64,000 bases of DNA from Arenicellales bacterium (GCA_965216735.1 OZ244198.1:4725628-4789627); one strand, 5' to 3'; positions 29,014 to 49,932 are shown, numbered from the stretch's first letter. A program made the numbers and translations. The notes: generated by a model not told the origin, from the sequence alone.

Positions 29014-29513
29014 TAGCGAGCCGATGAATCTTGATAATGGTGCGGCGAACGGGGGCTACAATAAAACCAAACACTCATTGAATTCCACGCCCTGCGGGGA
29101 GAAAGGTCATGCTCTTACTCCTTAAGAACCCTGCTCGGAGGGTCCAATTAACAATTGTTTACATTCCGAATCGCTTGTTGGATTGTGACAAACTGTTTGT
29201 CTAGTGTATAACTAGTCGTGTCCCCGTTTGGGGGGGACAACTTACACAAAGTGTATTGATCGTGTTTTGATCATCGCTTTTTTGGGGGTCTAAATAGCTG
29301 TTGTCTTATTTGGGGTAGGCCAACACTATTTGATTTCGGAAACACGGGGTAAGTTGCGTAGTAGAGCTGCGCAACGGAACTGATTCAATTCCGTATGACA
29401 CGCGGAACTGAATTGGTATTGGGGTAACTCGAATAGTTTAGCCTTCACGTTGCGCGTAACTGGTTTTGATTTGTCAAAGCGGCAAATCTATTTTGGCATT
29501 TGTGGGGGTACAT

Positions 29514-31193
29514 ATGTGTACATGTAATTCTAGAGTTGGAAGGGGGCTATTTTCTTCTCTTTTCCTTACGTTTTTGATGTTTGTGGGAACGATCCAAGCG
29601 CAAGAAGTCGCAAATCCTGATTTGGTTCAATCTTGTGGATTGGATATCGCCCTTGTTCTTGACGAGTCAGGTTCTATTCAGGACCAAAACGCGATTAACG
29701 CCGTTAGGCAAGCCTCGAAATCTTTCGTTGGAGCGCTGAGTGGCACTGGTTCCAGTGTGTCTATTGTTGAATTTAATACCCGTGCAAGAACGGTACTTCC
29801 GTTAACAGAAGTCACGGACAGCTCCATGCAATCTTTTTACGATTACATTGATGCGACTTCGGGTAATCCAGACACTGGATACGATCCCTCGGTTTATACC
29901 AACATGGAACGTGGTACAAACTGGGAAGACGCATTTCGTACAACAGCGAGTAACCAATCCACTCCGTTACTGGTTTTTGTAACTGACGGTGATCCAACAT
30001 TCTGGCTGGTGGATCCGGACAATACGGCAATAGGTGGCGTTGGCTATGACACAGGGAATAACAATGCGGACTCTGCAAACCAGGCGACACCGGTAGCAAA
30101 CGCTATTAAACAAAACGGAACCCATATCTTGATGATAGGTGTGGGCCCGGGTCTTTCTGGTGCCGTACAACAAGGTCGGTTGATGCAAGTATCGGGACCG
30201 GATCTGGTTACGGATTTAACCAGTTTTGATCTAGCTACCACGGATGTTATGGTTGTTTCGGATTTTGCGTCTTCGTTATCGGCCGTTCTCCGGCAAATCG
30301 TTGTATCGCTTTGCGCACCATCCATCACTTTTCAGAAGTTGGCCAAAGATATTGGTGAAAGCGCTTATTCGGTAGAAAGTGGTTGGACCTTTTCGGGTAC
30401 TGTCCAAACGAATGACGGTACTCCCGTTGAATGGATTACGCCGAATGCAGGCAGCACAGCCGCCGAACAATCCGGCCAAACCGATGAAAACGGAGAAATC
30501 ACTTTTCATTGGGTAGCGGACAGCGACGTTGCCTTTACCTGGGACGAAGATTTACAAGACTTTTCCTTTGTGGATGGCCAATGTTCGAAACGGACATTCG
30601 AAAGCGACGGTCATGTGGATTCAACATTCGCCACCATCCCACTGGAAACTTTCGTCGTATCCGACAGTGACTATATCTCTTGTGTGGTGAGGAACGAACG
30701 ACACATTGTGGTCAACACTTGTGACGACGGAAAACCCGCTGGACTCGTGTTTCGTTACGACGGCTCAGGTGCTGAAGATGACACCAATTCGCAACTCACC
30801 AACGAATTAATCGTGGAGGGTGATCCGATGTCAATGGACCCGGTGTTTATTGAAGTCTTCGATCACAAAGGTGTTGTACTATTCGCCGGCACGGTGGGTT
30901 TAAATGACACTTTTCAAGTCTCGGGCACCAAACGGCTCATTCCACCCCGTATGCGCTTCTTAGTGTATGACGCGGAAGGTGGCAGCGTGTTGCAAACGGT
31001 GCAGTTCCATACCTCGTGTTCGCAACCCTTGAATACGGGCGATTCCTTTGGTTCTATCGTACTAGTGGGTGAGACCCAGGTTTCTTCCGGTGGCAATCCA
31101 GGCAAGCCAAATAATGGCGATGGTGACAAGCCGGAAAACCCCGGTAAATCAAAAGGCAAGAAACTCGGTAAGGACAAAGGAAAAAAATCCTAG
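29514..31193 (+). CDS. secreted von Willebrand factor A (vWA) domain protein with a Lys/Gly-rich C-terminal tail
   Basis: Signal MCTCNSRVGRGLFSSLFLTFLMFVGTIQAQE. MIDAS DIALVLDESGSI. The C-terminus is GGNPGKPNNGDGDKPENPGKSKGKKLGKDKGKKS. The ORF track start at 29466 is less likely. Confidence 0.75.
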   Translation: MCTCNSRVGRGLFSSLFLTFLMFVGTIQAQEVANPDLVQSCGLDIALVLDESGSIQDQNAINAVRQASKSFVGALSGTGSSVSIVEFNTRARTVLPLTEVTDSSMQSFYDYIDATSGNPDTGYDPSVYTNMERGTNWEDAFRTTASNQSTPLLVFVTDGDPTFWLVDPDNTAIGGVGYDTGNNNADSANQATPVANAIKQNGTHILMIGVGPGLSGAVQQGRLMQVSGPDLVTDLTSFDLATTDVMVVSDFASSLSAVLRQIVVSLCAPSITFQKLAKDIGESAYSVESGWTFSGTVQTNDGTPVEWITPNAGSTAAEQSGQTDENGEITFHWVADSDVAFTWDEDLQDFSFVDGQCSKRTFESDGHVDSTFATIPLETFVVSDSDYISCVVRNERHIVVNTCDDGKPAGLVFRYDGSGAEDDTNSQLTNELIVEGDPMSMDPVFIEVFDHKGVVLFAGTVGLNDTFQVSGTKRLIPPRMRFLVYDAEGGSVLQTVQFHTSCSQPLNTGDSFGSIVLVGETQVSSGGNPGKPNNGDGDKPENPGKSKGKKLGKDKGKKS

Positions 31194-32230: not shown

Positions 32231-32779
32231 GTGAGAAAACAAAAAAAATCGAGTAATGCACGTAGAAAATTACTTAAACTAGCTTCGTACGGTACATTGG
32301 GTGCCACTACAGTCCCGGCAACATGGGTAAAGCCGATCATTGACGTGGTGGTTCTACCGGCGCACGCACAAACCACGGGACCCGTTGATCCAACTAACCC
32401 GACTAATCCAACTAATCCGACTAATCCAACGACCCCACCACCGACGACACCGGCACCGAATCAGTGCACTGTCTCGACCATACCGGCCGCATCAATTGGT
32501 GCATGCCCGACGTCGCCCAACATTCAGGCAGCGTGTACAGTCGATTTAAATATTTCCGGTTGCGAGCCATTTGCATCGGTCGACGGACAATGGATTTGCA
32601 ATGGATCCAACGTAGGTGCCTATGGAAGTTTCACGCTCGATGCGAATGGTGGGTTATCGGTGACACGGCCGTATCCGGGTGTGCATGGTGGACGCTGTTG
32701 CGAACTGGTGATTGATATCAATGGTCAGGTTTTTCGCGACCTGTTTTTTGTGGCAGACGGGGGTAGTTGCCAAATATAG
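32231..32779 (+). CDS. P2: Tat-like-leader family protein with (PTN)n linker and a 9-Cys C-terminal domain
   Basis: GTG start preceded by taAGGGAGac. NARRKLLKLASYGTLGATTVPATWVKPIIDVVVLPAHAQTT leader, then PTNPTNPTNPTNPTTPPPTTPAP, then a Cys-rich domain. Confidence 0.7.
   Translation: MRKQKKSSNARRKLLKLASYGTLGATTVPATWVKPIIDVVVLPAHAQTTGPVDPTNPTNPTNPTNPTTPPPTTPAPNQCTVSTIPAASIGACPTSPNIQAACTVDLNISGCEPFASVDGQWICNGSNVGAYGSFTLDANGGLSVTRPYPGVHGGRCCELVIDINGQVFRDLFFVADGGSCQI
32390..32434 (+). repeat. in-frame 9-bp tandem repeat (ccRacWaaY, about 4.5 copies) encoding (PTN)n in P2
   Basis: ccaactaac ccgactaat ccaactaat ccgactaat ccaacgacc, read directly. Confidence 0.9.
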
Positions 32780-32929: not shown

Positions 32930-33583
32930 TCACCGAACAGGTAGCTGATTTTCGGCATTCTTCGAGTATCCGTAACAATCGAAGTCCGCTTCGAAAAGCT
33001 GGCGTACGATTTCAGTTGTCGTTTCGTCGTAGTATTCCGCTATCTCACGGTCATCCCTCATCGGATGCCGGTAAGTATTGAATTGGGGGAAGCGACGGTT
33101 TATGTGTAATGCCGACGCGACAGGTCGAATTGCATATGGAAGCCGTTCGAAGTGGGCCACATAATCGCAGATATCTACTCCATCGAGTTGGGTGTAGCAC
33201 ACTTGTGGTAGGTAATGCGATCCCTTCTGGTGGGCGGCGGCGGTAGCTAGCTCGGGTAGCGACAGGACGAAATTTCTGAAATTTCCAAACCGCTGCACGT
33301 GATGATCGTATAAGTAGTAATAAACTGAAACTAGACGCGAAAAAGGATTTCGCACGACGGTAAACTTGTAGTAACTATCAAATATATCACTGCCCAATTT
33401 ACGTTGAATAACTTTTGCTGTAGCGTGTTGTAAATAGATACCCTCTTCAGGGTCCCAGCCAAATAAGGAATCGTGATCGGCCACTCTATGGTCGCGTTTT
33501 TCATCCCGTAACCAGCGCTCCACCGAAACACCGGCTGTCTTTCCAATATGAAAGTAGATACATTTATGTTCGTGAAAAACCAT
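32930..33583 (-). CDS. sulfotransferase-family protein (PAPS-dependent type)
   Basis: FHIGKTAGVSVERWL resembles the 5'-PSB loop (hIPKTGGTS). FTVVRNPFSRLVSVYYY resembles the RNPxxRxxS 3'-PB motif. Confidence 0.7.
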   Translation of the reverse strand: MVFHEHKCIYFHIGKTAGVSVERWLRDEKRDHRVADHDSLFGWDPEEGIYLQHATAKVIQRKLGSDIFDSYYKFTVVRNPFSRLVSVYYYLYDHHVQRFGNFRNFVLSLPELATAAAHQKGSHYLPQVCYTQLDGVDICDYVAHFERLPYAIRPVASALHINRRFPQFNTYRHPMRDDREIAEYYDETTTEIVRQLFEADFDCYGYSKNAENQLPVR

Positions 33584-33668: not shown

Positions 33669-33941
33669 ATGAATAAAAGCGATATTCCCGTGATTGCCGG
33701 CGACTACCGTCTGGAGGAATTCGATGGCGAACTCTTGTTGTATCACCCGGCGACGACGAGAACCTTACATATGAACGACTCGGCGTCGCTCATCTGGAAC
33801 CTGTGTGATGGAAAGCGAACAATTCAAGATATTGTGACTACTCTCGCCGAAGCGTATCCCGAATCCGCTGAAAGCATTGAGAACGATGTAACGCAGACAA
33901 TTAAAAATCTTTTTGACAATGGCGTTTTATCCCTCGACTAA
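33669..33941 (+). CDS. PqqD-family protein (RiPP recognition element, RRE)
   Basis: 90 aa. ...EFDGELLLYHPATTRTLHMNDSASLIWNLCDGKRTIQDIVTTLAEAYPESAESIENDVTQTIKNLFDNGVL matches the PqqD pattern throughout. Confidence 0.8.
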   Translation: MNKSDIPVIAGDYRLEEFDGELLLYHPATTRTLHMNDSASLIWNLCDGKRTIQDIVTTLAEAYPESAESIENDVTQTIKNLFDNGVLSLD

Positions 33942-33950
33942 AAATTAAAG

Positions 33951-35795
33951 ATGAAGACGTGGTACGTTGAGTTCGGGGGTCATTCGGCCGCCATTCAATA
34001 CGAAGACAATTCCGTCGCCGATCTTCTTGAATTTCTGTTCGTAGACCTTCCTGCAACTTCTGCAATTACTCCGGTAGAAACCTTTCGAATCATGGCGGAC
34101 CCGTCATGGAAACACTGTGAATTGCGTTGGAGTGATGGCCATAGCACCCGTGTGAATTCTCGTTGTGAATTGGCGCTCCAAGTCGTATCCGAAGTTCTTT
34201 TTACATTGATCAATAAATGTAGGGGAGGTCACATAATTCATGCCGCGGCCGTGCACAAAGATAACATGGGTATCTTGATGCCGGGCAAAAGCGGTGCTGG
34301 AAAATCGACTCTATGTGCATGGTTCGTAAAAAACGGCTATACATATCTGACAGACGAAGCGATTTGTTTTCCAACGGGGCAGTCGCGATTTCATTCTTTT
34401 ACACGTCCAATTCATTTTAAGCCGGGTTCTACCTCCGCTCTGAATACATTGTTGAGCGGTGAGAATATCAATGATTTATCTGAAACAGATGGTCATACGA
34501 AGATTGTTCCGCACCGTAGCTTAAATGAAAATTGGAAAAGCGCGGTTCCAGATGTGTGTTTACTGTTATTTCCGGAGTATGCAACCGACCATGACTTCAG
34601 CTTGGAACCTCTTAAACCCGCGCAAGCGAGCATGGCGCTCATGGGTGTGCATGCCAATGCCCGTAATTTAGAACACCATGGGTTTCATGAGATTACTAAC
34701 ATCGCGCGATCAACACCCGCCTTTCGATTATGCTACAGCGATTACACCCAACTCGAAAATAGACTTGATTTATTGGTAGAGCTTGTCTTGGAACGATCCG
34801 CCGATGCCACGCATTTGGTGGAATTATTCCGTTCGATGCAAACCCATCGTGTCATAGATATTCCTTCGAAACAGGAGACAACCGAAAAAGCCACCCACCC
34901 CATACCGGAGCCAACGAAATCCGGTTCCAAGAAAAAACTATGTCTAGGCATGGCTACGTATGACGACTACGACGGTGTTTACTTTTCCGTTCAAGCCATT
35001 CGTATGTTTCATCCCGAAATAACCCAAGACACCGAGATTTTGGTAATCGATAATAATCCGACAGGGGCTTGCAGTCTGGCATTGAAGAAGCTCGACGGTT
35101 CAATAAAGGGTTACCGCTATATGCCCAATGCGAATGTTCAAGGTACCGCAATCAGGGATTTGGTTTTCCAATATGCCAATGCCGACTATGTTTTGTGCAT
35201 GGACTCCCATGTGTTTCTAGAGCCCGGTGCTATCTGCAAATTCATCGATTACTTGGATCAACATCCTGACTGCATGGATTTACTACAAGGCCCCATGTTG
35301 TATGACGACCAATCTACGGTGATGACGCATTTTGAACCGCAATGGCGCCAGGGTATGTACGGTACTTGGGCGCACGACGAACGCGGACAAGACAAAGACA
35401 ACCCACCGTTTGACATTCCCATGCAAGGATTGGGTTTGTTTGGTTGTCGAAAACAGGCGTGGTTAGGATTCAACAAACACTTTCGTGGATTTGGTGGTGA
35501 AGAGGGATATATTCACGAAAAGTTTCGTCAAGCAGGGCGTCAAACCTTGTGTCTACCTTTTCTACGTTGGCTGCATCGTTTCGAACGCCCTAATGGTGTT
35601 CCCTACCGACTTAAATGGGAAGACCGCATATATAACTACTGGGTGGGATTTAGCGAATTGAGTATGGACCCGGCGCCGATGATCGAACATTTTCGTGGTC
35701 ACCTGGGCAAACAAGTGACGGATAATATCTTGGCTGATATCCAGGCGGTCTTTAAAGAAAAAGCAATATTAAAACAAAACATTCCATCAAAATGA
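33951..35795 (+). CDS. fusion protein: N-terminal HPr-kinase-like P-loop domain plus C-terminal family-2-type glycosyltransferase domain
   Basis: IIHAAAVHKDNMGILMPGKSGAGKSTLCAWFVKNGYTYLTDE is the HprK-like Walker A region (nt 34284-34310). From about aa 328, KKLCLGMATYDDYDGVYFSVQAIRM ... ILVIDNNP ... YVLCMDSHVF is a GT-A fold with a D-S-H metal motif at nt 35202-35210. Confidence 0.75.
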   Translation: MKTWYVEFGGHSAAIQYEDNSVADLLEFLFVDLPATSAITPVETFRIMADPSWKHCELRWSDGHSTRVNSRCELALQVVSEVLFTLINKCRGGHIIHAAAVHKDNMGILMPGKSGAGKSTLCAWFVKNGYTYLTDEAICFPTGQSRFHSFTRPIHFKPGSTSALNTLLSGENINDLSETDGHTKIVPHRSLNENWKSAVPDVCLLLFPEYATDHDFSLEPLKPAQASMALMGVHANARNLEHHGFHEITNIARSTPAFRLCYSDYTQLENRLDLLVELVLERSADATHLVELFRSMQTHRVIDIPSKQETTEKATHPIPEPTKSGSKKKLCLGMATYDDYDGVYFSVQAIRMFHPEITQDTEILVIDNNPTGACSLALKKLDGSIKGYRYMPNANVQGTAIRDLVFQYANADYVLCMDSHVFLEPGAICKFIDYLDQHPDCMDLLQGPMLYDDQSTVMTHFEPQWRQGMYGTWAHDERGQDKDNPPFDIPMQGLGLFGCRKQAWLGFNKHFRGFGGEEGYIHEKFRQAGRQTLCLPFLRWLHRFERPNGVPYRLKWEDRIYNYWVGFSELSMDPAPMIEHFRGHLGKQVTDNILADIQAVFKEKAILKQNIPSK

Positions 35796-36310
35796 GTATT
35801 AGACGTCTTTTCATTACCCGACTCATCGGAATGCTCAGCGCCATTCCGATCTTGGGTAACGCCTCACTGCGCGCAAATACCGCTATTGCGGATTCCCCCA
35901 GCTCGGTACAAGATCAATTCCGAATTCTCGTCGACACCTGTGTGCCTCGGGACGACTATCCGGGCGCTGTCGACGAGGGAATCGATAGAAAACTATTGAG
36001 CGAAATTTCGGCGAACCCGATTCATTTGAAACGCGTACACGATTTGCTAATTGATATTGATAAACTGTCGCGTAGTCAATTCAAACAGGTTTTTGTCGAT
36101 CTCGAGTTGTCTAATCGTACCCGTCTACTAGATAGACTATTGAATGATAAAACACTGGTTCCTGACCAACGTGCAGAATTAAGTTACCTACGTGCACGTG
36201 TACTGCAACTGTTTTATACCTCCGAATCCGGATTTGCCATGCTGGATTACCATCCACCCAGTCATGGCGGTTACCCGGACTACGCAAAACCCTTAGATCA
36301 ACTAAGCTAA
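35792..36310 (+). CDS. Tat-signal small subunit (gluconate 2-dehydrogenase subunit-3-like) partnering the GMC flavoprotein
   Basis: MSIRRLFITRLIGMLSAIPILGNASLRANTAIA is a twin-arginine signal. 172 aa. The ATGA overlap with the upstream gene implies translational coupling. It lies directly upstream of the GMC oxidoreductase. Confidence 0.6.
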   Translation: MSIRRLFITRLIGMLSAIPILGNASLRANTAIADSPSSVQDQFRILVDTCVPRDDYPGAVDEGIDRKLLSEISANPIHLKRVHDLLIDIDKLSRSQFKQVFVDLELSNRTRLLDRLLNDKTLVPDQRAELSYLRARVLQLFYTSESGFAMLDYHPPSHGGYPDYAKPLDQLS

Positions 36311-36315
36311 AGCGA

Positions 36316-37956
36316 ATGCCGCAACCTGATTACGATGCCATCGTCATCGGTGCGGGCGCGGGCGGTGGATTCGCGGCGATGGCCCTGGCCGAACGTGGTG
36401 CGAAAGTATTGTCAATCGAACGCGGCAAACGTTTCAATTACAAAACCGACTATCCCATGAACTATCCTGACTGGGAATCGCGTTTGCATCCGTTGTCCAG
36501 TGTTGTGGAAACGTTTCAGCCTGTCGCTACACCGGAAATAGCCAAAACCGATAGCGACATTTGTTCCCGAATCACCGGGTCCCCATCACCACACGCACCT
36601 GGACGACGCGGACAGTTTCAGTATTTACGTTCTATCGGCGTGGGCGGATCCACCTTGCACTATCAAGGGGAAGCACACCGCTTTCCAAGCCACGCTTTTA
36701 GGTCGAAAACCCTATTTGGTTGGGGTGAAGACTGGCCCTTGTTCTATACCGAGTTGGAACCGTACTACGACCAGGTGGAAAAAATCCTGGGCGTCGCCGG
36801 GAATCCGGGTAATCCTTTTAAGGATAAACGTGGAGCATTTCCAACCCCTACCCACTCGTTATCCACCAAAAGCCAGCTCGTCGAGTTTGGCACAAAAAAA
36901 TTGGGTTGGTCGTTACTGCCGAATACGTTGGCGTTGCCCAGCCGCTCTATCGACAACCGTATGCCGTGTCAACATTCCGGCGGTTGTGTTCAAGGTTGTA
37001 TTTTCGGTGCCAAATCCAGTGTCGATCAAACCGCCATCGTGCATGGCGAAAAAACCGGAAACCTGACCGTGTTACCCGAAGCGCGGGTGGTGCAACTGGA
37101 GACGAATAAGAAAGGGGGTGTGACCGGTGTTGTGCTGGTACACAATAAAAAACGTCGACGCATTAGTGCACACAAGTACTTCCTTGCCTTGGGTGCGATT
37201 GAAACGCCTCGTTTGTTGTTGGCCAGTGCATCGAGCTCCCATCCGAATGGTATTGGCAATGCGCACGATCAGGTAGGTCGTTATCTTATGGAAACCATCA
37301 TAGCCAGCATGGAAATATTGGTCGAACAACCGGTGCATGCATACAAAGGCCCGCCCATCGACGCACGTATCTGGGATTTCAATTACCCATCAAAAGATTC
37401 CCGTGTGCGTTCGGGCTATGTATTGGGAGTGTCTGGCACATCGGCAGGCCCCCACGGACCGGTGTCTTACGCGAATAGTGTCCAGGGATTGGGTTTAGAA
37501 CACAAACGGAAGGTGCGTGACATCTTTGGCCGCAATGTCCAACTGTTCGGCATCGCGGAACACATGCCCCACTACGATAATCGATTAAGGCTAGGTGACA
37601 AGAAAGACGCCGATGGCGTGCCACTGGTAACCGTATTCAGCGACTACTCATTCGATGATCGCGAAACACTACGCGAAATGATCAATAAAATCGATACCTT
37701 GGCAGATGCTTGTGGTTTTTTAAACAAAGTGCGTTTGCATTCGAGCTACGACTCTCCATCTTCCACCCATGTCGCCGGCACCTGCCGTATGGGCAGTGAT
37801 CCGGAAAAAGCAGTAACCGATGAGTTGGGCAAAGTGTTTGGCGTCGGCAATCTTTACATTACCGACGCCAGCGTCTTACCGAGTCAGGGAGCGGGCGATT
37901 CCCCGTCCCTGACTATTCAAGCCTTGGCGTTACGAACAGTTCGAATGTTGTCGTGA
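36316..37956 (+). CDS. GMC-family FAD oxidoreductase (no signal peptide of its own)
   Basis: YDAIVIGAGAGGGFAAMALAERGAKV FAD motif. C-terminal GTCRMGSDPEKAVTDELGKVFGVGNLYITDASVLP GMC signature. Confidence 0.85.
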   Translation: MPQPDYDAIVIGAGAGGGFAAMALAERGAKVLSIERGKRFNYKTDYPMNYPDWESRLHPLSSVVETFQPVATPEIAKTDSDICSRITGSPSPHAPGRRGQFQYLRSIGVGGSTLHYQGEAHRFPSHAFRSKTLFGWGEDWPLFYTELEPYYDQVEKILGVAGNPGNPFKDKRGAFPTPTHSLSTKSQLVEFGTKKLGWSLLPNTLALPSRSIDNRMPCQHSGGCVQGCIFGAKSSVDQTAIVHGEKTGNLTVLPEARVVQLETNKKGGVTGVVLVHNKKRRRISAHKYFLALGAIETPRLLLASASSSHPNGIGNAHDQVGRYLMETIIASMEILVEQPVHAYKGPPIDARIWDFNYPSKDSRVRSGYVLGVSGTSAGPHGPVSYANSVQGLGLEHKRKVRDIFGRNVQLFGIAEHMPHYDNRLRLGDKKDADGVPLVTVFSDYSFDDRETLREMINKIDTLADACGFLNKVRLHSSYDSPSSTHVAGTCRMGSDPEKAVTDELGKVFGVGNLYITDASVLPSQGAGDSPSLTIQALALRTVRMLS

Positions 37957-37990: not shown

Positions 37991-38614
37991 TTAAAGGGAG
38001 CAAAATGGCTCACTTGGGCACCCGCTCCCTACCGATAGTGTTCCAGAACTAGCGTAAGTCCCGGACAACGTGAAATCCGCGCCACTCGCTGAAACGCTAT
38101 TAACGGCGATGGATTCCATGCCAAGAATGCAGTTATTGACGTCGACCATGTCCACGGCGCCACCACCCACCACGCCACTTGCGGTGAGGAACGAACCATT
38201 GCCCAGCACTGCCAACGTTGCCGTGAAGTTCGTGCCGTTTACCTCAATACACATGTCAGCAGAATCCTGCGGCAATCCACCGGCATACGCATTTGGAATG
38301 ACTGTATCCAGGATGGTGGCGTATAAACCTTCTTGCGGTTGATCGATACTATTAATAGGAGTTATGGTGACGGAGAACTGACCTCTGAAATTGATGATTG
38401 GCAATGTCGTAGTTGGCGCGGGTGTGGTAGGCACCACGGTGGTTTGCGCATGAGCAGGCAGTATCACACTGTCCACCACCGGTTTGGTCCATTTGGTCGG
38501 TAGTGTTTGGCTGGCCGCAACAGCGGCACCGCTACCGACTAAGAGTCTCTTTAACGCTTTGCGTCGTGCTGTCGGTTGCTCCGGTGGTTGTGATGAATCA
38601 AACGCTTGTTTCAT
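37991..38614 (-). CDS. P3: Tat-like-leader family secreted protein, 4-Cys beta-rich domain
   Basis: I chose the start at MKQAFDSS (ATG 38614) because AAGGAGAA lies upstream and it aligns with P4. Leader TARRKALKRLLVGSGAAVAASQTLPTKWTKPVVDSVILPAHAQTTVVPTTPAPTTT. Confidence 0.75.
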   Translation of the reverse strand: MKQAFDSSQPPEQPTARRKALKRLLVGSGAAVAASQTLPTKWTKPVVDSVILPAHAQTTVVPTTPAPTTTLPIINFRGQFSVTITPINSIDQPQEGLYATILDTVIPNAYAGGLPQDSADMCIEVNGTNFTATLAVLGNGSFLTASGVVGGGAVDMVDVNNCILGMESIAVNSVSASGADFTLSGTYASSGTLSVGSGCPSEPFCSL

Positions 38615-38822
38615 AAGATTTCTCCTTTTCTTCAGTGCGGTTTTAATCAAACCTCGGTGATATCGTAGCTTCATTCATTGCTAAATTTACCGATTTAGGG
38701 TGCCGATGATTCCGATTCTCCGTCTGTCTATCCAATCGCCAACGTTAGCGATAGTGAGCAAAATGTAGAGCATGAACCATGGCTAAAATTGTTGTTTCGT
38801 GTCATAAGGTCAATACTCGTTC

Positions 38823-39452
38823 TTAAGTAAAGATTGGGATACAGTTTCCCGGATCACTGGGGCAACCGTTACCGGTTGGCAGCATTCCGCTAGCGGTAAA
38901 GAAACCGGACATCGTGAAATCCGCTCCACCGGGTGACACGCTATTCACCGAAAGAAATGTGTCGGATACTTCACAAGCGTTCGGGTTGTCCATAATCACT
39001 GGACCTCCACCTACAGTGCCACTGGCGGTCAAGAAAATGGGATCAGTAGCAGTAGGACGAGTAAAGTCAAATCTCACAGCCGCGGTGAAACTGGTACCGT
39101 CCACTGCAATACACATGTCACCGGATTGTGTCGAAGTACCAGCGTGTGCTTTTGGAACGATTGAATCCAGTATGGCAAACAGGCTTTCTGGCTCGTTATT
39201 AATTGTTACTATAGCGTTTGCTGAAACAGGACCCCTGAAATTGATTACTGGTGCCGCCGTCGTAGTGGGCACCACGGTGGTTTGCGCATGCGCCGGTAGT
39301 ATCACACTGTCCACCACTGGTTTGGTCCACTTGGTCGGTAGTGTTTGGCTGGCCGCGACAGCAGCACCGCTACCGACTAAGAGTTTCTTTAACGCTTTTC
39401 GCCGCGCCGTCGGTTGCTCCGGCGGTTGTGATAAATCAAACGTTTGTTTCAT
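38823..39452 (-). CDS. P4: Tat-like-leader family secreted protein
   Basis: The leader differs from P3 at 3 residues out of about 62. The mature part is diverged but keeps 4 Cys (DMCIAV, NACEVS, GNGCPSDPGNC). Confidence 0.75.
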   Translation of the reverse strand: MKQTFDLSQPPEQPTARRKALKKLLVGSGAAVAASQTLPTKWTKPVVDSVILPAHAQTTVVPTTTAAPVINFRGPVSANAIVTINNEPESLFAILDSIVPKAHAGTSTQSGDMCIAVDGTSFTAAVRFDFTRPTATDPIFLTASGTVGGGPVIMDNPNACEVSDTFLSVNSVSPGGADFTMSGFFTASGMLPTGNGCPSDPGNCIPIFT

Positions 39453-39625
39453 AAGGTTTCCCCTTCTCGTCGATAATATTCTTAATCAAAACTTGGTTAC
39501 GTCATGATTTTATGGACTACGCTTTAGTGATTCCCGAAAAATATATGATAGCTTTGTTTGTTCCATACCGCTCAAGTCCTCAGATAGGTAGGGGTATTTG
39601 TAGGAACTAGGTGCTAAGCTGATGT

Positions 39626-40240
39626 TTATTCGCAACCAACGAAAGGATCAGTGGGACAACCGCTACCGACCGGTAATACACCACTCGCGTTGAAGAGACC
39701 CGATAGCGTGTAGTCGGCACCAGCGGTTGATGCACTATTGACCGACAGATCTGTTGGGGTAGAGCGACACCCATCGACATCGGTCATGGTGACTGAACCA
39801 CCCCCTACTATGCCACTCGCTGTAAAAATATCAGTATCAACTACTAGTGTTGCGGTGAAGCTGGTGCCATTGACTTCAATGCACATGTCTGCGGGTCTCT
39901 GAGTGAATCCACCGGCGTGCGCATTGGGAATGACCGTATCCAGGATGGTGGCGTACAAACCTTCTTGCGGTTGGTCGATACTATTAATAATAGGATTGTT
40001 TTGTTGGCCAGCAGTAAATTGACCTCTGAAATTTTGCATAAACACCGTTGTGGTAGGCACCACGGTGGTTTGTGCATGAGCCGGTAATATCACACTGTCC
40101 ACTACCGGTTTGGTCCATTTTGTGGGTAAGGCGTGACTGGCGGCTACTGCGGCGCCGCCACCGACTAACAACTTTTTTAAAGCCTTTCGCCGAGTAGGTG
40201 TGTGGTCTTTGGATACGACTTGGTTTTCTGATGAACTCAT
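39626..40240 (-). CDS. P5: Tat-like-leader family secreted protein
   Basis: I chose the start at MSSSENQ (GGGAGG upstream). Leader TRRKALKKLLVGGGAAVAASHALPTKWTKPVVDSVILPAHAQTT. The mature domain is close to P6. Confidence 0.75.
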   Translation of the reverse strand: MSSSENQVVSKDHTPTRRKALKKLLVGGGAAVAASHALPTKWTKPVVDSVILPAHAQTTVVPTTTVFMQNFRGQFTAGQQNNPIINSIDQPQEGLYATILDTVIPNAHAGGFTQRPADMCIEVNGTSFTATLVVDTDIFTASGIVGGGSVTMTDVDGCRSTPTDLSVNSASTAGADYTLSGLFNASGVLPVGSGCPTDPFVGCE

Positions 40241-40508
40241 CAACGGCCTCCCATTCATGAAATTTTGATGTTTCTACTCAACCACTTATGAGATATGTAT
40301 CATAAATATTATCAAATAGCCACAAAACAACATTGTTCGTACTAAGGTTTATTAATATTAGATATTATTAATAAAACACAAATCTATATACCGGCCGATA
40401 CCGTTAGATGACATGAATGACTGTTACAGGAAACTTTTTTTGGTGGACGTCATAGTACGCTGACAAATGTCAGAGGCGGAAACCGAATTCCCAAATCGAG
40501 CCCCACTG

Positions 40509-40586
40509 CGTTTGGGACATGATCCAGAAAAAGCGATGGTGACTGAATTCGGCAAGGTGTTCGGCGTCGGTAACCTTTTTATTTCT
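40509..40586 (+). pseudogene. remnant of the 3' end of a second GMC oxidoreductase gene
   Basis: It translates to RLGHDPEKAMVTEFGKVFGVGNLFIS, versus CRMGSDPEKAVTDELGKVFGVGNLYIT at the C-terminus of 36316..37956. There is no upstream ORF. The position relative to P6 mirrors that of the intact GMC gene relative to P3. Confidence 0.65.
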
Positions 40587-40621
40587 CAATTTAGGTATGG
40601 GTGACGGGGCTAAGCTATTGT

Positions 40622-41197
40622 TTAATCACAACCAACAATAGGATCAGTCGGACAACCGCTACCTGCCGGCAACATACCACTCGTGCTGTAAAAACCCGAT
40701 AACGTGTAGTCGGCACCAGCGGATGATGCACTATTGACAGTCAACTCTGTTGGCACAGAAGTACACCCATCGACATCGGTCAAGGTAACCGGACCTCCGC
40801 CGACCGTACCACTCGCCGTGAATAAAATATCATTGTTTACTAACAGTGTTGCGGTGAAACTGGTGCCATTGACTTCAATACACATGTCGGCCGGTGACAT
40901 ACGAAATCCGGCATGCGCTTTTGGAATTACCGTATCCAGGATGGTGGCGTATAAACCTTCTTGCGGTTGGTCGATGCTACCAAAGTTTATGTCAACGGAG
41001 AACTGGCCCCTGAAATTTTGCATAAACACCGTTGTGGTAGGCACCACGGTGGTTTGTGCATGAGCCGGCAGTAGGACACTGTCCACCACCGGTTTGGTCC
41101 ATGTGGCCGGTAGCTGGGTTGCACCGACCACACCCCCCGCCAAGCCCAACAACGCCCTACGACGTGCCGTCGGAATACGCTGTTTATCTTCTTGCAT
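40622..41197 (-). CDS. P6: Tat-like-leader family secreted protein
   Basis: I chose the start at MQEDKQRIP (GGAGACGGAGAG upstream). Leader TARRRALLGLAGGVVGATQLPATWTKPVVDSVLLPAHAQTT. The ORF extends to 41260. Confidence 0.75.
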   Translation of the reverse strand: MQEDKQRIPTARRRALLGLAGGVVGATQLPATWTKPVVDSVLLPAHAQTTVVPTTTVFMQNFRGQFSVDINFGSIDQPQEGLYATILDTVIPKAHAGFRMSPADMCIEVNGTSFTATLLVNNDILFTASGTVGGGPVTLTDVDGCTSVPTELTVNSASSAGADYTLSGFYSTSGMLPAGSGCPTDPIVGCD

Positions 41198-41376
41198 CTC
41201 TCCGTCTCCCCATAAAGTGTCGAATTTTCTAAAACCCGGCTTTACAACGACAGGTTTCATTTAAAACGGGCACAACGAAGGAGCCCGCTCTCTGCTTGGT
41301 GTCCAATGAATTATCAGACATTCCTTCGTGATAGTTGCTACTGGAAAGCAGTTAAACCAATGACAGCGACGAGCGC

Positions 41377-42534
41377 ATGACCCATTTGGGCTATAATTTA
41401 AGTGTAAAACTGCGGGGACTAAGCCATATGGTGGAACGATCACAGGAGGACAAAGTATCGGCCGAGATTGTCGAGAGGATTTACCGCGACATTTCTACCC
41501 TCGATCTGCCTGATTTACTTAAACAAATAGCGAGTCTCATCGGCGTCGCTGAAGTCGCCATCTACACCGCGCCGCCCGGTTCAGAACAATTCCAGTCTGT
41601 CATTGGCGGATGTATTGAAGACAGCGTTCATCAACAATATGTCGATACGTATCAGCACGGTGACGTCCAAATACAACGACTGTTGCGTACTAAACATATC
41701 GATTTTCTAACTGGGGAAGATCTAACGACTTTTGAAGAACTCAAACATTGTTGTGTCCACAATGATTACCTAAGACCGAACGGTATTGATTCACAACTGG
41801 TCTACGCAATGCATGGGGAGCATGGTCATAGGCGGACGTTCGTCGCTATGAGGGAGTGCGAGGCCGGACCTTATCAGGATTGGCAAATCGCTCTATTCAA
41901 GGCGATCGCAGGAAAAATCAAAGACAGTCTTAACCTGCGCGATACGATACACCAACTTCACTTCGATAATACTATATCTAACCTAGTACTGGAGAGCGCA
42001 AGCGTCGGACTTGCTGTGTTGAATGATGAGTTTGTTCCTGTTTATGTAAACGAGGTGTTTCGTAATATCGTAAAACAAACGAAATGTCTCGATCTACAAA
42101 ACGGTCGCATCCGCTGCAACAATGAATACGACAAAACGCTGACACAGTTACTTCAAAATGCAATGATTGGTCAATCTGGCAGTATGTGTCTACAAAGAAA
42201 CGGCACAATGACTAGATTAGAAGTCACTCGGTTTATCGATTCATTTGACGAAGATTTATTGTTTTCATCTGATGCTCGAATTCTCTTGTTACTGCGGCAA
42301 GAACGAGCGATAAAAAAGTTTGATCTTGTTGCGATTAAACATCACTTGGGTATTTCACATGCCGAATCACGGCTTGTTTTTCACCTCGTAAATGGAGGCA
42401 CGATCAATAGCTACGCCACTCAGTGGCGCGTCAGTACGCACACAGCCAGAAACCAACTGAAATCGGTTTTTAACAAGACAGGACTTCATTCACAAAAAGA
42501 GTTGGTAGCCAAGATATATCTTGATCTTGGTTGA
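41377..42534 (+). CDS. LuxR-family (C-terminal HTH) transcriptional regulator with an uncharacterised N-terminal sensory region
   Basis: C-terminal HLGISHAESRLVFHLVNGGTINSYATQWRVSTHTARNQLKSVFNKTGLHSQKELV is a GerE/LuxR-type HTH. An alternative start exists at 41428. Divergent from P6. Confidence 0.7.
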   Translation: MTHLGYNLSVKLRGLSHMVERSQEDKVSAEIVERIYRDISTLDLPDLLKQIASLIGVAEVAIYTAPPGSEQFQSVIGGCIEDSVHQQYVDTYQHGDVQIQRLLRTKHIDFLTGEDLTTFEELKHCCVHNDYLRPNGIDSQLVYAMHGEHGHRRTFVAMRECEAGPYQDWQIALFKAIAGKIKDSLNLRDTIHQLHFDNTISNLVLESASVGLAVLNDEFVPVYVNEVFRNIVKQTKCLDLQNGRIRCNNEYDKTLTQLLQNAMIGQSGSMCLQRNGTMTRLEVTRFIDSFDEDLLFSSDARILLLLRQERAIKKFDLVAIKHHLGISHAESRLVFHLVNGGTINSYATQWRVSTHTARNQLKSVFNKTGLHSQKELVAKIYLDLG

Positions 42535-42671: not shown

Positions 42672-43841
42672 CTAGTTATCAACAGGGGCTTGGTTGCGAA
42701 TACGATACAGGGTATACCGTAGCGTGGAACGTATACGTTGAATCATCCAAAATCCAATACGCGTCCAATGCCGTATACACCGGATCGGTCCGGAGACGTC
42801 CTGCTCCGGTGGTACGCCGTAGTACAAGTGCCACCACCAGGCCGGTGGCCAAACGATGCTTCTTAGATACTTTAAACTGCGTCGATAGTTGCGGATTGAC
42901 CACGGCACACTGGACAGTGTGGGAATACCCCGACCCGCGCCCGATGGAGCGGGCACAGTGGGCGGCGATATTCTGCGCTGTAATATCGGCGGCATCGGGG
43001 AAACGTAGTGTAAACAACGTATGGTGTTTTCGATGATCGGATGGTTCTGTTTAAGCGAAAGCCAATCGATGTCCTCATCAAAATGCGCACAGTAAGCATA
43101 AACGTCTACAATGGATATAAGCTTTGTTTCCATCACAGGCTCTGCTAAATGACGGCACAAGTGCTTCAACATATCCGCATGGCCGAGATGCTGGGCAGAT
43201 ACTTCGCTGACCGAGTAATTTTGAACTTCACTCATGAGGTTTTTCATTGAGATAGAGGCGCGGGCGTCCGGAGCAATCGCGTCGCGGTGGACCTCGACGC
43301 TGATAGCGAGTCCGTCAAACTCTTTCTTGGCGATGGCCATGTGATGATGATCGAACTTTACGCCGGGTCTAACTAAAGACGCACCACTGTAACCGAGTGA
43401 GCCCAACAGTTGCTGGGCCCGGTTGCATTTATCTTCGTCCACCAAGAGATCGATATCCGACATCGGTCTCAATTCCGGTGCGGGATAAACGGTGTAAGCC
43501 AGTGCTGCACCTTTCAAAACAATAACGGAAATATTCTGACTCTCTAGCTTTTGTAATATCTCGATGAGCGCGTGTGTGCGAACTTTTGTCGCATGCCGAT
43601 GACGTAGCGCCAACGATTTCAGCTGTAGTTCAGTGTCATTAGGAATTACGATGCCGAGTTGTTTGAGGTGCCGGTGCAGCAGCGGTGCCATACCATGTTG
43701 TTCGGCACGTTGGGCCAGTCCCTGCCAAACACTTTTGTCCTTAGCGAGTTGGTTTATAGATGTGACACGTTGATCATCCAGCTCCAGACAGGAGCAAGCG
43801 CGCAACAGGCGAGTAGATGAAGGCAAATCTTGACGTTGCAC
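42672..43841 (-). CDS. nucleotidyltransferase-family protein (NTP_transf_5 / PF14907-like)
   Basis: VIVLKGAALAYTVYPAPELRPMSDIDLLVDEDKCNRAQQLLGSLGY matches the LKG ... R.m.DIDLLV signature of this family. Confidence 0.7.
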   Translation of the reverse strand: MQRQDLPSSTRLLRACSCLELDDQRVTSINQLAKDKSVWQGLAQRAEQHGMAPLLHRHLKQLGIVIPNDTELQLKSLALRHRHATKVRTHALIEILQKLESQNISVIVLKGAALAYTVYPAPELRPMSDIDLLVDEDKCNRAQQLLGSLGYSGASLVRPGVKFDHHHMAIAKKEFDGLAISVEVHRDAIAPDARASISMKNLMSEVQNYSVSEVSAQHLGHADMLKHLCRHLAEPVMETKLISIVDVYAYCAHFDEDIDWLSLKQNHPIIENTIRCLHYVSPMPPILQRRISPPTVPAPSGAGRGIPTLSSVPWSIRNYRRSLKYLRSIVWPPAWWWHLYYGVPPEQDVSGPIRCIRHWTRIGFWMIQRIRSTLRYTLYRIRNQAPVDN

Positions 43842-48426: not shown

Positions 48427-49932
48427 TTGCCAAGAACCAGTAATCCTAACGTGACCGGTCGCTTTGCAAGGAGTTTTATAAAAAGAATATTGTCGCGTTT
48501 GGGTGTGAGTGTAAAGCGATCGCCTGGCCAATTCGAACTGTTAATTGAAAGTAACTCTGCCAGGCAGTTGTCGATCGTTGAGTCAGAAAAATTCGCGCCC
48601 TGTTCCGGGGTTTCAACGCTCTCGCGAATCAACCTGGACAAACAAGGTGGATCCCTTGCCACGCTGGGAACAAAAAAAGCGATCGACATAACATTATCCG
48701 GCGAATCAATCGCAGTTGTTGAAACGGGTAGCTGGTGCTGGCCTGCCCACTTGCAGAACGGCGTGCGTACTGCGCGTGTTTCACACCCAACGGAAGGACG
48801 GGAACGGCGGGTGATAGTTGATTTTCGCAGTAGGGCAGAAAAACACTTTGCCAATCTATTCGTCGATTCAATCGGTCAGGCAATAATGGCAATTTTTTTG
48901 ATGGGAAAGGAAAATGGCAAGGCGTTTGCAAAGGGCTGGGTTTACGATCCACATCGGCAACCCGGCGCAGACGGATTTCGATTGAATAATCAAACAGCCG
49001 ACATTGTGTTGACCACATCACAACCCGGTTGGGAAACACATCTCGGACCCGTGTTTTCGTATTTCAGTATGAAGGGAGAAGAACATTTTACTTTTTTCGA
49101 TGCTAAGGTTACGGCAAAAGGGTCGGCTATTGAACCGGTAGTAGTCGAATACAATAGCACGCCGGAAGGCCTGTTTGACCGTTGCCGTTTCGGCTATGTC
49201 GAGGATAACCTGCCAATGCCCCGGGGTGAAACGTTTAAACGCGTATCGGGAAACCCTAATCCGTTTACCTTTCGACTGTCAGGCTATTCCGCTTCTTTGG
49301 TCTTACGCGATATCGTTCGACATTATCTCGACAAATCTGTAGCGGAGTTAAGTCGTGTACTCGATTGGGGTTGCGGGTGCGGGCGGGTGTCCCGTCATTT
49401 CCGTGACGATGCTGGGAGAACTCATTGGTGTGGTGCGGACATCGATGAGATAGGCGTTCAATGGGCACAGGAAAATCTGCCTTTTGGTCATTTCCATCAT
49501 ATAAAGCCGTTGGAAAAAACGCCTTATCCGGATAATCACTTCGAACTTATTTTTGGAATTTCGGTATTTACCCATTTACGCGAAGCAGATCATTTATTCT
49601 GGTTGCAGGAACTCGCCCGTATTTTGGCTCCCGCTGGAATTGTGGCGGTGAGTATCGCTGGAAAGACGTTGCGAGCGCGGTTGTTTACAACAGACATCAA
49701 CGAACTCACCAACGACCTCATCGCGGGATACACCGATCATGGCCGCAGCGACGCCATCGATGGAAGCACGAGCGATATTGAGTATTACCGCAGCACGTTT
49801 ATATCAGAAGACTATGTTAGGACAGTGTGGAGCCGCTACTTCGATGTCCTGGATATTCATCCGGGGCTAATCGGATGCCGACAGGATTTGGTCGTCATGG
49901 GCAAGAAACCTGCGCACCAAGATTGCGATTAA
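48427..49932 (+). CDS. class I SAM-dependent methyltransferase with a long uncharacterised N-terminal region
   Basis: VLDWGCGCGRVSRHF (motif I) and ELIFGISVFTHL in the C-terminal third. The start is uncertain. Confidence 0.6.
   Translation: MPRTSNPNVTGRFARSFIKRILSRLGVSVKRSPGQFELLIESNSARQLSIVESEKFAPCSGVSTLSRINLDKQGGSLATLGTKKAIDITLSGESIAVVETGSWCWPAHLQNGVRTARVSHPTEGRERRVIVDFRSRAEKHFANLFVDSIGQAIMAIFLMGKENGKAFAKGWVYDPHRQPGADGFRLNNQTADIVLTTSQPGWETHLGPVFSYFSMKGEEHFTFFDAKVTAKGSAIEPVVVEYNSTPEGLFDRCRFGYVEDNLPMPRGETFKRVSGNPNPFTFRLSGYSASLVLRDIVRHYLDKSVAELSRVLDWGCGCGRVSRHFRDDAGRTHWCGADIDEIGVQWAQENLPFGHFHHIKPLEKTPYPDNHFELIFGISVFTHLREADHLFWLQELARILAPAGIVAVSIAGKTLRARLFTTDINELTNDLIAGYTDHGRSDAIDGSTSDIEYYRSTFISEDYVRTVWSRYFDVLDIHPGLIGCRQDLVVMGKKPAHQDCD

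Follow-up and report, generated by a model that had tools for sequence, protein, structure and literature searches.

A PqqD-associated kinase::glycosyltransferase fusion from an Arenicellales bacterium and its candidate Tat-exported, threonine-rich substrates

The PqqD-family protein and the two halves of the fusion

In a 64,000-nt stretch of the genome of an Arenicellales bacterium (GCA_965216735.1, OZ244198.1:4725628-4789627; hereafter the window, in whose numbering all positions are given), a gene for a small PqqD-family protein is followed by a gene for a protein that joins an HprK-like kinase to a glycosyltransferase (GT). We analyzed both proteins, their relatives and their gene neighborhoods, and propose that they may act together on secreted proteins and peptides that share a leader. 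The two open reading frames (ORFs), with the domains and motifs that they encode, are the following:

33669-33941 (stop included), + strand: PqqD-family RiPP recognition element (RRE; RiPP, a peptide made on ribosomes and modified after translation), 90 aa (Pfam PF05402)
33951-35795, + strand: kinase::GT fusion ORF, 614 aa, after a 9-bp gap (six-frame ORF list)
33951-34850, + strand: HprK/PEPCK-fold P-loop kinase domain, residues 1-300 (TIGR04352, AlphaFold2/Foldseek)
34239-34241, + strand: H97 of the kinase half (signature conservation)
34293-34307, + strand: P-loop of the kinase half, G115-S119 (signature conservation)
34353-34358, + strand: D135-E136 of the kinase half (signature conservation)
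34929-35795, + strand: GT-A glycosyltransferase domain, residues 327-614 (Pfam PF00535, Foldseek)
35202-35210, + strand: D418-S419-H420 metal motif, codons GAC TCC CAT (translation)
35490-35510, + strand: FGGEEGY, residues 514-520 (conservation)
35574-35576, + strand: His542, candidate C-terminal metal ligand (conservation, GalNAc-T2 register)

The PqqD protein covers 67 of the 67 positions of the PF05402 profile (E 8.8e-17, 61.6 bits against a gathering score of 23.4), with weaker NCBIfam matches to HPr-rel-A PqqD, ScmD and lasso PqqD chaperones. It also scores 48 bits against the 46-bit cut-off of TIGR03859, the NCBIfam equivalog for the PqqD of pyrroloquinoline quinone (PQQ) biosynthesis, and automated annotation would probably give it that name. 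A role in genuine PQQ biosynthesis was rejected, as no PQQ-biosynthesis domain was found among the ~30 larger window ORFs scanned (13.7-59 kb).

Pfam and NCBIfam profiles divide the 614-aa ORF into an N-terminal HprK-like kinase and a C-terminal Glycos_transf_2 domain. The kinase half matched NCBIfam TIGR04352 (HprK_rel_A) over residues 89-273 (E 3.2e-26, 92.1 bits), below the 200-bit equivalog cut-off, and is thus a relative of that family rather than an equivalog member; the match to Pfam Hpr_kinase_C was weak (E 4.7e-4), and Pfam PF27840 'ScmC' is recorded on the N-terminal half of fusion homologues. An AlphaFold2 model of residues 1-303, made from a 31-sequence alignment (predicted local distance difference test score, pLDDT, 88.3; predicted template modeling score, pTM, 0.87), retrieved with Foldseek the ATP-dependent phosphoenolpyruvate carboxykinases (E ~1e-6, query template modeling score, TMq, 0.5-0.6) and next the HprK/P structures 3tqf, 1knx, 1kkm and 2qmh (E 5e-4 to 4e-3). 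When a sequence profile was searched against the PDB, the kinase half matched HprK 1ko7 (E 2.7e-5) in an alignment that pairs LHaaaV with LHGVLV, the Walker A segment GxSGaGKS with GDSGIGKS, and ltDE with vaDD. The kinase half is therefore predicted to have the PEPCK/HprK P-loop kinase fold. Its signature comprises H97, G115, G117, K118, S/T119, D135, E136, R152, N236, R238 and N239 (HGGK[ST]DERNRN); all 11 residues are kept in 77 of the 78 homologues of ~600 aa, so that the domain looks catalytically constrained in the class to which the window enzyme belongs, and K118 is conserved in 117/121 homologues.

The GT half matched Pfam PF00535 (Glycos_transf_2) over residues 337-440 (E 8.2e-10, 39.3 bits; gathering score 23.3). 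Foldseek, given an AlphaFold2 model of the full-length fusion (pLDDT 77.8), returned 314 PDB matches at E<=1e-3. The best 50 listed are all GT-A glycosyltransferases, the top 20 being polypeptide GalNAc-transferases without exception (E 2e-9 to 1e-8), followed by RmlT (1.1e-8), the chondroitin polymerase K4CP (2.5e-8) and COLGALT1. Searched against PDB sequences, a profile of the GT half found TarP (E 4e-4) and K4CP (E 2e-3). The Pfam scan of the fusion gave no domain beyond the kinase and GT matches; neither a ricin-type lectin domain nor a type-II membrane topology was found in the chain, in which the GT-A domain is followed by a helical tail up to residue 614.

Residues D418, H420, D338, D339, D367 and N368 are conserved in 121/121 homologues, E518, H522 and H542 in 120/121, and E517 in 118/121. 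At the middle position of D-x-H, 81 sequences have C and 34 have S (115 scored), and the invariance of the motif across all 121 homologues indicates that the substitution did not arise by chance. Elsewhere, DxH takes the place of DxD only in families GT27 (polypeptide GalNAc-transferases) and GT60 (pp-alpha-GlcNAc-transferases), both polypeptide Ser/Thr O-glycosyltransferases, in which a C-terminal His completes the metal site (Taujale et al., PMC7185993). In the PDB sequence of GalNAc-T2, the segment 219-VLTFLDSH holds the metal motif D224-S225-H226, the corresponding segment of the window enzyme being 414-VLCMDSH. From residue 514 the window enzyme reads FGGEEGYIHEKFRQAGRQTLCLPFLRWLHRFER, the counterpart of which in GalNAc-T2 starts at 331 (WGGEN), and the Glu-to-His spacing is 25 residues in both proteins (E517-H542 and E334-H359). 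The Gal/GalNAc-T motif WGGENxE is not matched, the window enzyme reading FGGEEGY. The GT half may work like the enzymes of GT27/GT60, a link that is based on structure prediction and on the register of the motifs. The GT-A fold, the DxH metal motif, a GGE-x motif, the C-terminal metal His and Thr/Pro-rich acceptors (putative for the window enzyme) are common to both sides of the comparison, whereas the window enzyme is presumably cytoplasmic, lacks a lectin domain and a membrane anchor, has Glu at the third xED position, and would recruit its substrates through a leader and an RRE rather than a lectin domain.

These results confirm the observations in the original prediction made for this DNA, which had described a 90-aa PqqD-pattern protein ending 9 bp before a 614-aa ORF, an HprK-like N-terminal ~300 aa, a GT-A/GT2-type C-terminal ~290 aa with D-S-H at the metal-binding position (nt 35202-35210), and DxH as characteristic of polypeptide GalNAc-transferases. 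Profile and structure comparisons, which it had proposed as checks, matched both halves to the predicted folds, and neither half was found to have a different one. Among these observations, the numbering of the P-loop needed correction, K117/S118 being off by one for K118/S119.

Conserved partners and the shared leader

A protein search with the fusion returned >1,100 matches (protein clusters). The best 120 of these are kinase::GT fusions of like architecture and 40-50% identical, with one more at 90% identity, which is encoded in a syntenic context in an Arenicellales metagenome-assembled genome (MAG). When one genome per species was scanned (185,579 species genomes), relatives were detected in 405 stretches, and the hosts include Arenicellales, Desulfobulbaceae (cable bacteria among them) and many Hyphomicrobiales and Rhodobacterales. 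Cultured organisms with the fusion include Labrys, Oricola indica, Desulfofustis glycolicus and Yoonia tamlensis. The fusion is thus a large uncharacterised family rather than a rarity, labelled only 'glycosyltransferase' in public sources. Other relatives carry a C-terminal GT25, LicD or second GT2 domain, additions that suggest an extended glycan.

To describe the neighborhoods, ORFs were called in 80 fusion-centred loci and searched with iterated hidden Markov models (HMMs) seeded from window proteins; this approach was adopted because spurious antisense ORFs and the merging of families had upset single-linkage clustering of the neighbors. The resulting counts, which refer to the 52 loci flanked by at least 5 kb on either side, come from crude ORF calling and from HMMs trained on the same loci that they searched. 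A PqqD gene lies near the fusion in 37/52 loci, a gene for an NTP_transf_5 nucleotidyltransferase in 36/52, ORFs with a shared leader in 35/52 (1-6 each, often as 2-6 tandem copies directly upstream of the fusion) and a second kinase in 10/52. The co-occurrence of PqqD, NTP_transf_5 and leader ORFs with the fusion spans Gamma-, Alpha- and Desulfobacterota lineages, and one relative, P0082, is a Rosetta-stone protein that combines HprK-PqqD-FucT_N-GT2-GT25 in a single chain. NTP_transf_5 is the third conserved enzyme of the system, beside the PqqD protein and the fusion. Its gene in the window and the six leader ORFs, which encode a 91-aa mucin-like peptide and five proteins of ~180-230 aa, are located as follows:

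42672-43841, - strand: NTP_transf_5 nucleotidyltransferase, 389 aa (Pfam PF14907, E 5.3e-45)
20636-20911, - strand: 91-aa precursor with Tat-like (twin-arginine translocation) leader, WTRPIVDSVVLPAHA, and the 38-aa core QTTTVVTTTSAPATTTAPTTTAAPATTPAPTTTGGVIN (17 Thr) (leader HMM E 1.1e-21)
32231-32779, + strand: 'P1', 182 aa, with leader, QTTGPVDPTNPTNPTNPTNPTTPPPTTPAP linker and Cys-rich domain (leader HMM E 7e-18; motif at 32324-32368)
37991-38674, - strand: leader-bearing paralogue (leader HMM)
38823-39452, - strand: leader-bearing paralogue (leader HMM)
39626-40258, - strand: leader-bearing paralogue (leader HMM)
40622-41260, - strand: leader-bearing paralogue (leader HMM)
38282-38314, 39141-39173, 39914-39946 and 40910-40942, - strand: second leader-like motif of the four paralogues, resembling VVDSVILPAHA, without WxxP

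The leader begins with a Tat-like SRRxLLK segment and a Gly/Ala-rich hydrophobic stretch, continues with W-x-[KR]-P-[VI]-[VI]-x-x-V-x-x-P-A-H-A, and is followed by x-[TA]-[ST]. W-x-x-P and then [VIL] occur in 82 of the 84 fusion-adjacent leader ORFs and in all six window precursors, with K/R mostly at the third position. Among the 82 adjacent ORFs, exactly 8 residues separate W-x-x-P from A-H-A in 75 and A-H-A is present in 72; core position 1 is A/Q, position 2 is A/T/S, and position 3 is S (57) or T (17). RR is invariant in an alignment that includes the window paralogues (A4), and TIGR01409 (TAT_signal_seq, cut-off 16.7 bits) was among the few matches for all five leaders tested, at 12.5-19.5 bits. 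Neither Pfam nor NCBIfam contains a family for the precursor cores or for the whole leader. The leader conforms to the RRE-binding motif [Y/W]xxPx[L/V/I/F/A] (PMC13381572), and by analogy the W-x-[KR]-P motif is presumed to be bound by the PqqD protein.

Enzyme-adjacent cores are 28% Thr, against a background of 4.7%, and in 69/82 adjacent ORFs there is a 15-aa window with at least 40% Thr, typical cores being TTTTTTTTTT or APTTTAAPTTT. We also searched a profile of the six window leaders against 1.84 billion representatives, which gave 4,227 proteins at E<=1e-3, of which 1,147 reached E<=1e-10. W-x-x-P, 8 residues and A-H-A are kept in 137 of the 138 parsable sequences among the best 150 matches, as is RR (137/138); position +2 is T in 132 and position +3 is S/T in 137. 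Most cores of these best matches are diverse domains of ~130 aa, and a strongly Thr-rich window is found in 31/137; in a leader-centred metagenome sample the corresponding figure is 16/57. The enzymes are adjacent in 2 of the 20 leader-centred metagenome loci of at least 5 kb (L091 and L108), and the precursors of exactly these two loci are short, extreme poly-Thr peptides; look-ups for leader proteins with non-Thr-rich cores led mostly to contigs of 1-2 kb. The invariant feature of the substrates is the A-H-A then x-[TA]-[ST] junction and not the Thr tract. The poly-Thr peptides are the predicted enzyme-linked cognate substrates, and a larger, dispersed set of putatively secreted proteins shares the tag.

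The 91-aa ORF, which had not been listed before and lies 13 kb away from the genes of the enzymes, encodes the window's most typical precursor of the family. This peptide is identical to a database representative (P0132), and its core contains repeats of APATTTAPTTTAAP that recall antifreeze glycoproteins. The four paralogues encoded at 37991-41260 consist of the leader, QTTVVPTTT... and a ~140-aa domain with 4 Cys (leader HMM E 7e-19 to 7e-23), and they have homologues only in the window's genome and its close relative. Two of the paralogue ORFs, 37991-38674 and 40622-41260, probably start too far upstream, as judged from the 209-aa paralogue, likelier starts being the internal Met at MKQAFDSSQ (nt 38614) and that at MQEDKQ, respectively. 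The second leader-like motif of the paralogues, ILD[ST][VI][VI]P[KN]A[HY]A, lies 48-55 residues past the first A-H-A and might mark another cleavage site or stem from an internal duplication; among the best global leader matches, ~18% of the longer cores (23/131) have such a motif, in the form xLVPxAHAG.

Related systems, a proposed pathway and its alternatives

Among characterised systems, the linear polyphosphorylated peptides (LPPs) of Bacillota (LppA/K/B/S/D/N) come closest. Popov et al. (2026, PMC13381572) describe their discrete RRE (LppB), HprK-like kinase (LppK) and nucleoside triphosphate (NTP) transferase (LppN), together with an exporter and a SipW-like peptidase. The LPP leader consensus is YxxPxVLxHQxIxFET, then xxS, with [Y/W]xxP as the RRE-binding motif; LppK (poly)phosphorylates core Ser3 and does not accept Thr, and LPPs and paeninodins are restricted to Bacillota according to the authors (PMC13381572). 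The window system shares with LPPs the PqqD-type RRE, the HprK-like kinase and an uncharacterised NTP transferase, precursors of ~35-200 aa in which the leader is conserved and the C-termini vary, [Y/W]xxP with hydrophobic residues after it, and a cleavage context of signal-peptidase type with a conserved Ser three residues into the core (Thr in the window precursors). The distance from the aromatic residue to the Ser/Thr is similar, 17 here as compared with 18 (Y to Ser3) in LPPs. It differs from them in that the kinase is fused to a GT-A domain, the aromatic residue is W and not Y, the signal is Tat-like, A-H-A replaces F-E-T, the enzyme-adjacent cores are poly-Thr, and the hosts are Pseudomonadota and Desulfobacterota. 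No S26/SipW-like peptidase or MsbA-type ABC gene was found among the annotated ORFs (window 28-47 kb) or in the relative's gene table. The LPP core gene set is only partly present (RRE, kinase domain and NTP transferase).

Lasso-peptide tailoring (paeninodin PadeK; pseudomycoidin PsmK/PsmN, PMC6993621) offers a second comparison, since there too an HprK-like kinase acts on an RRE-bound precursor and a hexose is added to the phosphate in an NTP-transferase-dependent manner. The addition of hexoses to the phospho-Ser of pseudomycoidin requires the NTP transferase PsmN, and in a cyanobacterial cluster a recognisable GT accompanies a PsmK homologue (PMC6993621); by the descriptions in the two papers, LppN and PsmN are the same kind of uncharacterised NTP transferase as NTP_transf_5 (PMC13381572, PMC6993621). 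The window system differs in having no macrolactam synthetase or B2 protease, so that no lasso is expected, in a target near the leader junction instead of a C-terminal Ser, and in its canonical GT-A domain. The best-scoring curated families for both proteins belong to HPr-rel-A (kinase A, TIGR04352; PqqD, TIGR04353) and to SynChlorMet (ScmC/ScmD), but the scores lie far below the equivalog cut-offs (92 vs. 200 bits and 25 vs. 35 bits), and these families have no GT domain and no known function. Bufferins (PMC11626156) and lipoprotein-pathway RiPPs (PMC13056109) resemble the window system in that modification in the cytoplasm precedes export and cleavage through a housekeeping signal-peptide route, but they use Sec or lipoprotein signals and MNIO enzymes (oxidative enzymes that depend on multinuclear non-heme iron), as opposed to a Tat-like signal with an embedded RRE-binding motif.

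On these grounds we propose that the fusion is an RRE-guided bifunctional enzyme that phosphorylates a leader-proximal Ser/Thr and O-glycosylates nearby Thr residues before Tat export, and we put the probability of this whole chain at roughly one half (0.5). The steps, each of which we infer, would be the following. The PqqD RRE would bind the WxxP strand of the leader in the cytoplasm, as lasso B1 and LppB RREs do with [Y/W]xxP. The RRE-leader complex would then dock on the HprK-like half, which would place a phosphate on the core Ser/Thr in position +3 (or +2), in the way that LppK modifies Ser3, and the tethered GT-A half, using Mn2+ (held by D418, H420 and H542) and a UDP-sugar, would O-glycosylate Thr in the leader-proximal Thr/Pro-rich tract. 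NTP_transf_5 might subsequently elaborate the phosphate, in a manner comparable to PsmN-dependent hexosylation in pseudomycoidin, and sulfation by a sulfotransferase may be a further step in this organism. The bulky, modified cargo would leave through the Tat system, which tolerates folded or decorated substrates, and signal peptidase I would cleave after A-H-A. By analogy with LppK, a single Ser/Thr at core position +3 is a more likely target of the kinase than the linker in general. The original prediction had proposed that T/P-rich linkers may be both phosphorylated and O-glycosylated under guidance by the RRE. The folds, the intact kinase signature, the D-x-H metal site, the polypeptide GalNAc-transferases as nearest solved structures, and the genomic linkage to PqqD (37/52 loci; P0082) and to leader-bearing, Thr-rich putative substrates speak for that proposal, whereas its emphasis on the linkers did not hold, the invariant feature being the junction and not the T/P tract (Thr-rich in 31/137 and 16/57). 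It had also overlooked the Tat-like nature of the leader and the third conserved partner, NTP_transf_5 (42672-43841).

Several results weigh against the proposed pathway. The Foldseek E-values of polypeptide GalNAc-transferases and of ordinary GT2 enzymes (RmlT, K4CP) are less than tenfold apart, and the GT-only profile found no GalNAc-T among PDB sequences at E<=10. Direct comparison was not significant by BLASTP of the GT half with the GalNAc-T2 motif region (E 0.049), nor by hhalign against a GT27 alignment built from exon-sized fragments (E 0.43, probability 0.1), which recovered the same register. The position of the catalytic base of inverting GTs (xED) is occupied by Glu-Glu (E517-E518), as opposed to Asn in GT27. 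Because sequence similarity is statistically weak and the base is Glu and not Asn, we do not file the GT half as a GT27 member. On the substrate side, most independently sampled leader proteins have no Thr tract, which rules such tracts out as an obligatory target, and the window precursors have Thr at position +3, a residue that LppK does not accept. The TIGR01409 cut-off is passed by one of the five leaders (Oricola), the window leaders scoring 14.2 and 13.1 bits, and the c-region of the leader is unusually long for signal peptidase I. Finally, ~30% of the well-flanked fusion loci appear to be without any partner in our crude ORF/HMM screen.

In the main alternative, the kinase half would phosphorylate the +3 Ser/Thr and the GT would act, with or instead of NTP_transf_5, on that phosphate or on its first sugar, yielding a phospho-linked glycan, the Thr tract then being an unmodified spacer or the target of other enzymes. 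The invariance of the x-[TA]-[ST] junction rather than of the Thr tract fits such a product, a kinase and a GT in one chain suit consecutive action on one site, the pseudomycoidin hexoses and the cyanobacterial pairing of a PsmK homologue with a GT (PMC6993621) supply precedents, and the carboxylate kept at xED (E517-E518) is found in inverting GT-A enzymes acting on sugar or other acceptors. We nevertheless consider a phosphoglycan unlikely, as it leaves unexplained both the consistent poly-Thr of the enzyme-adjacent precursors and a DxH metal site otherwise confined to polypeptide O-glycosyltransferases, and as NTP_transf_5 is already at hand for the phosphate-linked step. The role of the kinase half could also be different: it might mainly dock the RRE-leader complex to the GT, without phosphorylation, making the enzyme a leader-dependent peptide glycosyltransferase. 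Among the ~800-aa relatives with an extra C-terminal GT25 domain, 10/23 have at least two substitutions in the kinase signature and still keep the domain, and the loci of these long forms (L019, L024, L026, L027, L033, L063 and L085) encode a separate HprK-like kinase; that the domain persists even where a kinase in trans could provide the catalysis implies that it has a further role, in docking. In these relatives the fused domain looks like the outcome of subfunctionalisation into a docking module. Docking alone is nonetheless improbable for the window enzyme, since the near-complete retention of the signature in the ~600-aa class (77/78), including the Walker A Lys, argues for nucleotide chemistry and since no standalone kinase is present in the window. 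As a side observation on the long-form loci, the separate kinase is intact and adjoins PqqD and NTP_transf_5 genes (fused proteins P0084, P0110, P0114, P0116 and others).

Two further alternatives concern the leader and the pathway as a whole. The leader could merely be the secretion signal of ordinary Tat/Sec proteins, with PqqD and the enzyme acting on a small unannotated peptide or a non-peptide acceptor. Enzymes adjoining so few of the independently sampled leader loci (2/20), the diverse folded domains that make up the cores of such proteins, and the presence in Arenicellales relatives (L005, L010 and L011) of the enzymes with no leader ORF within 10 kb all point in this direction. A plain signal peptide, however, needs no invariant block of W-x-x-P, 8 residues, A-H-A and x-T-S/T; this block fits the known RRE-binding motif and is exactly spaced in 137/138 of the best global matches, and leader ORFs accompany the fusion in 35/52 loci, often as 2-6 tandem upstream copies, so that we give this explanation slightly less credence still. 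Least probable of all, to the point of being far-fetched, is a function of the fusion in polysaccharide, lipopolysaccharide (LPS) or sugar-phosphate metabolism with incidental PqqD adjacency. It is suggested by the public naming of homologues as 'glycosyltransferase' only, by GT25/LicD fusions, which are typical of LPS and teichoic-acid pathways, and by an ABC-2 exporter and a synthase for 3'-phosphoadenosine 5'-phosphosulfate (PAPS) in the same window. It is countered by the recurrence of PqqD, NTP_transf_5 and leader ORFs near the fusion in Gamma-, Alpha- and Desulfobacterota lineages, by the physical fusion of PqqD in P0082, and by the fact that the nearest models of the kinase half are the PqqD-associated HprK_rel_A and ScmC kinases and not sugar kinases.

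The pathway of RRE-guided phosphorylation and O-glycosylation also has a bolder form, which we advance only tentatively and regard as rather doubtful. It would constitute a prokaryotic mucin-type O-glycosylation, in which a cytoplasmic, RRE-steered GT-A enzyme with a DxH motif as in GT27/GT60, joined to its kinase, densely glycosylates poly-Thr peptides and the N-termini of numerous secreted proteins; one composite Tat/WxxP...AHA tag would mark at least 4,227 protein clusters, PqqD would double as a Tat proofreading chaperone, and the eukaryotic families of polypeptide O-glycosyltransferases would have in this GT their bacterial sister or origin. As a chaperone, PqqD would hold the signal peptide until modification is complete, after which Tat would export the glycoconjugate.

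Peptide modification by HprK, RRE and NTP transferase was known, as were RiPPs on Sec and lipoprotein signals; the new elements are the kinase::GT-A fusion, the Tat-type RRE leader and the poly-Thr precursors. A literature search found no description of an HprK::GT2 fusion, a Tat-type RiPP/RRE leader or poly-Thr RiPP precursors. If the proposals are true, the system would be an uncharacterised bacterial counterpart of animal mucin glycosylation. RRE-guided (RiPP-type) chemistry would extend from small antibiotic-like peptides to dense O-glycosylation/phosphorylation of secreted peptides and whole proteins in Gram-negatives, and a general export signal would be able to bear an enzyme-recruitment code. 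The DxH polypeptide O-glycosyltransferases would gain a relative, or failing that a mimic, in bacteria, making the origin of mucin-type glycosylation testable, and a portable leader tag with a soluble two-protein machine would become available for producing mucin-like or antifreeze-glycoprotein-like poly-Thr glycopeptides in bacteria. A testable role would also be provided for a family found in ~400 species genomes and >1,100 protein clusters, as well as for thousands of unannotated leader-bearing proteins.

Other genes around the cluster

The remaining genes considered are the following:

29466-31193, + strand: 575-aa protein, secreted-looking, which has VWA and DUF7467 domains and a tail rich in Lys/Gly (domain scan)
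32930-33583, - strand: Sulfotransfer_2 sulfotransferase, 217 aa, divergent from the PqqD gene, accessory (Pfam PF03567, E 7e-12)
35792-36310, + strand: Gluconate_2-dh3-like Tat-signal subunit, its start overlapping the fusion stop (ATGA) (Pfam)
36316-37956, + strand: GMC FAD oxidoreductase (Pfam)
41377-42534, + strand: 385-aa protein with a weak C-terminal LuxR-type helix-turn-helix (NF041232, E 0.0019, residues 335-382)
49929-51641, - strand: PAPS synthase, bifunctional ATP-sulfurylase/APS (adenosine 5'-phosphosulfate)-kinase (domain scan)
53924-55720, - strand: CitMHS/Na-sulfate-symporter-type transporter (domain scan)
55882-57584, - strand: ABC-2 exporter pair (domain scan)

The sulfotransferase, PAPS synthase, symporter and Gluconate_2-dh3/GMC genes are local extras and not general to the fusion family. 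A sulfotransferase lies near the fusion in only three distinct systems, namely one contig of the Arenicellales relative (L001/L003), one Desulfobulbaceae contig (L004/L084) and Oricola (L052). The PAPS synthase, the symporter and the ABC-2 pair are found 6-14 kb beyond the NTP_transf_5 gene; a supply of PAPS would fit the Sulfotransfer_2 gene of the cluster, and ABC-2/ABC_tran genes occur near the fusion in 12 other loci. The Gluconate_2-dh3/GMC pair also adjoins three leader genes in an unrelated metagenome-assembled contig (L086, 1535-3748), and this recurrence suggests that it may be an accessory periplasmic step. The pair hints at periplasmic oxidation of the exported products, its membership in the system being uncertain.

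Between two of the paralogues, a 45-codon ORF (40467-40604, + strand) is identical at 18/26 positions to the C-terminal region of the GMC oxidoreductase (E 2e-11) and resembles a pseudogene left over from an earlier duplication or rearrangement within the cluster. A scan for promoters and terminators over 32-44 kb gave no more sites than shuffled sequences. The 385-aa protein, conserved only in the close relative (L001), is a possible regulator, and the 575-aa VWA protein, which lies just upstream of the cluster, is likewise conserved in the close relative only.

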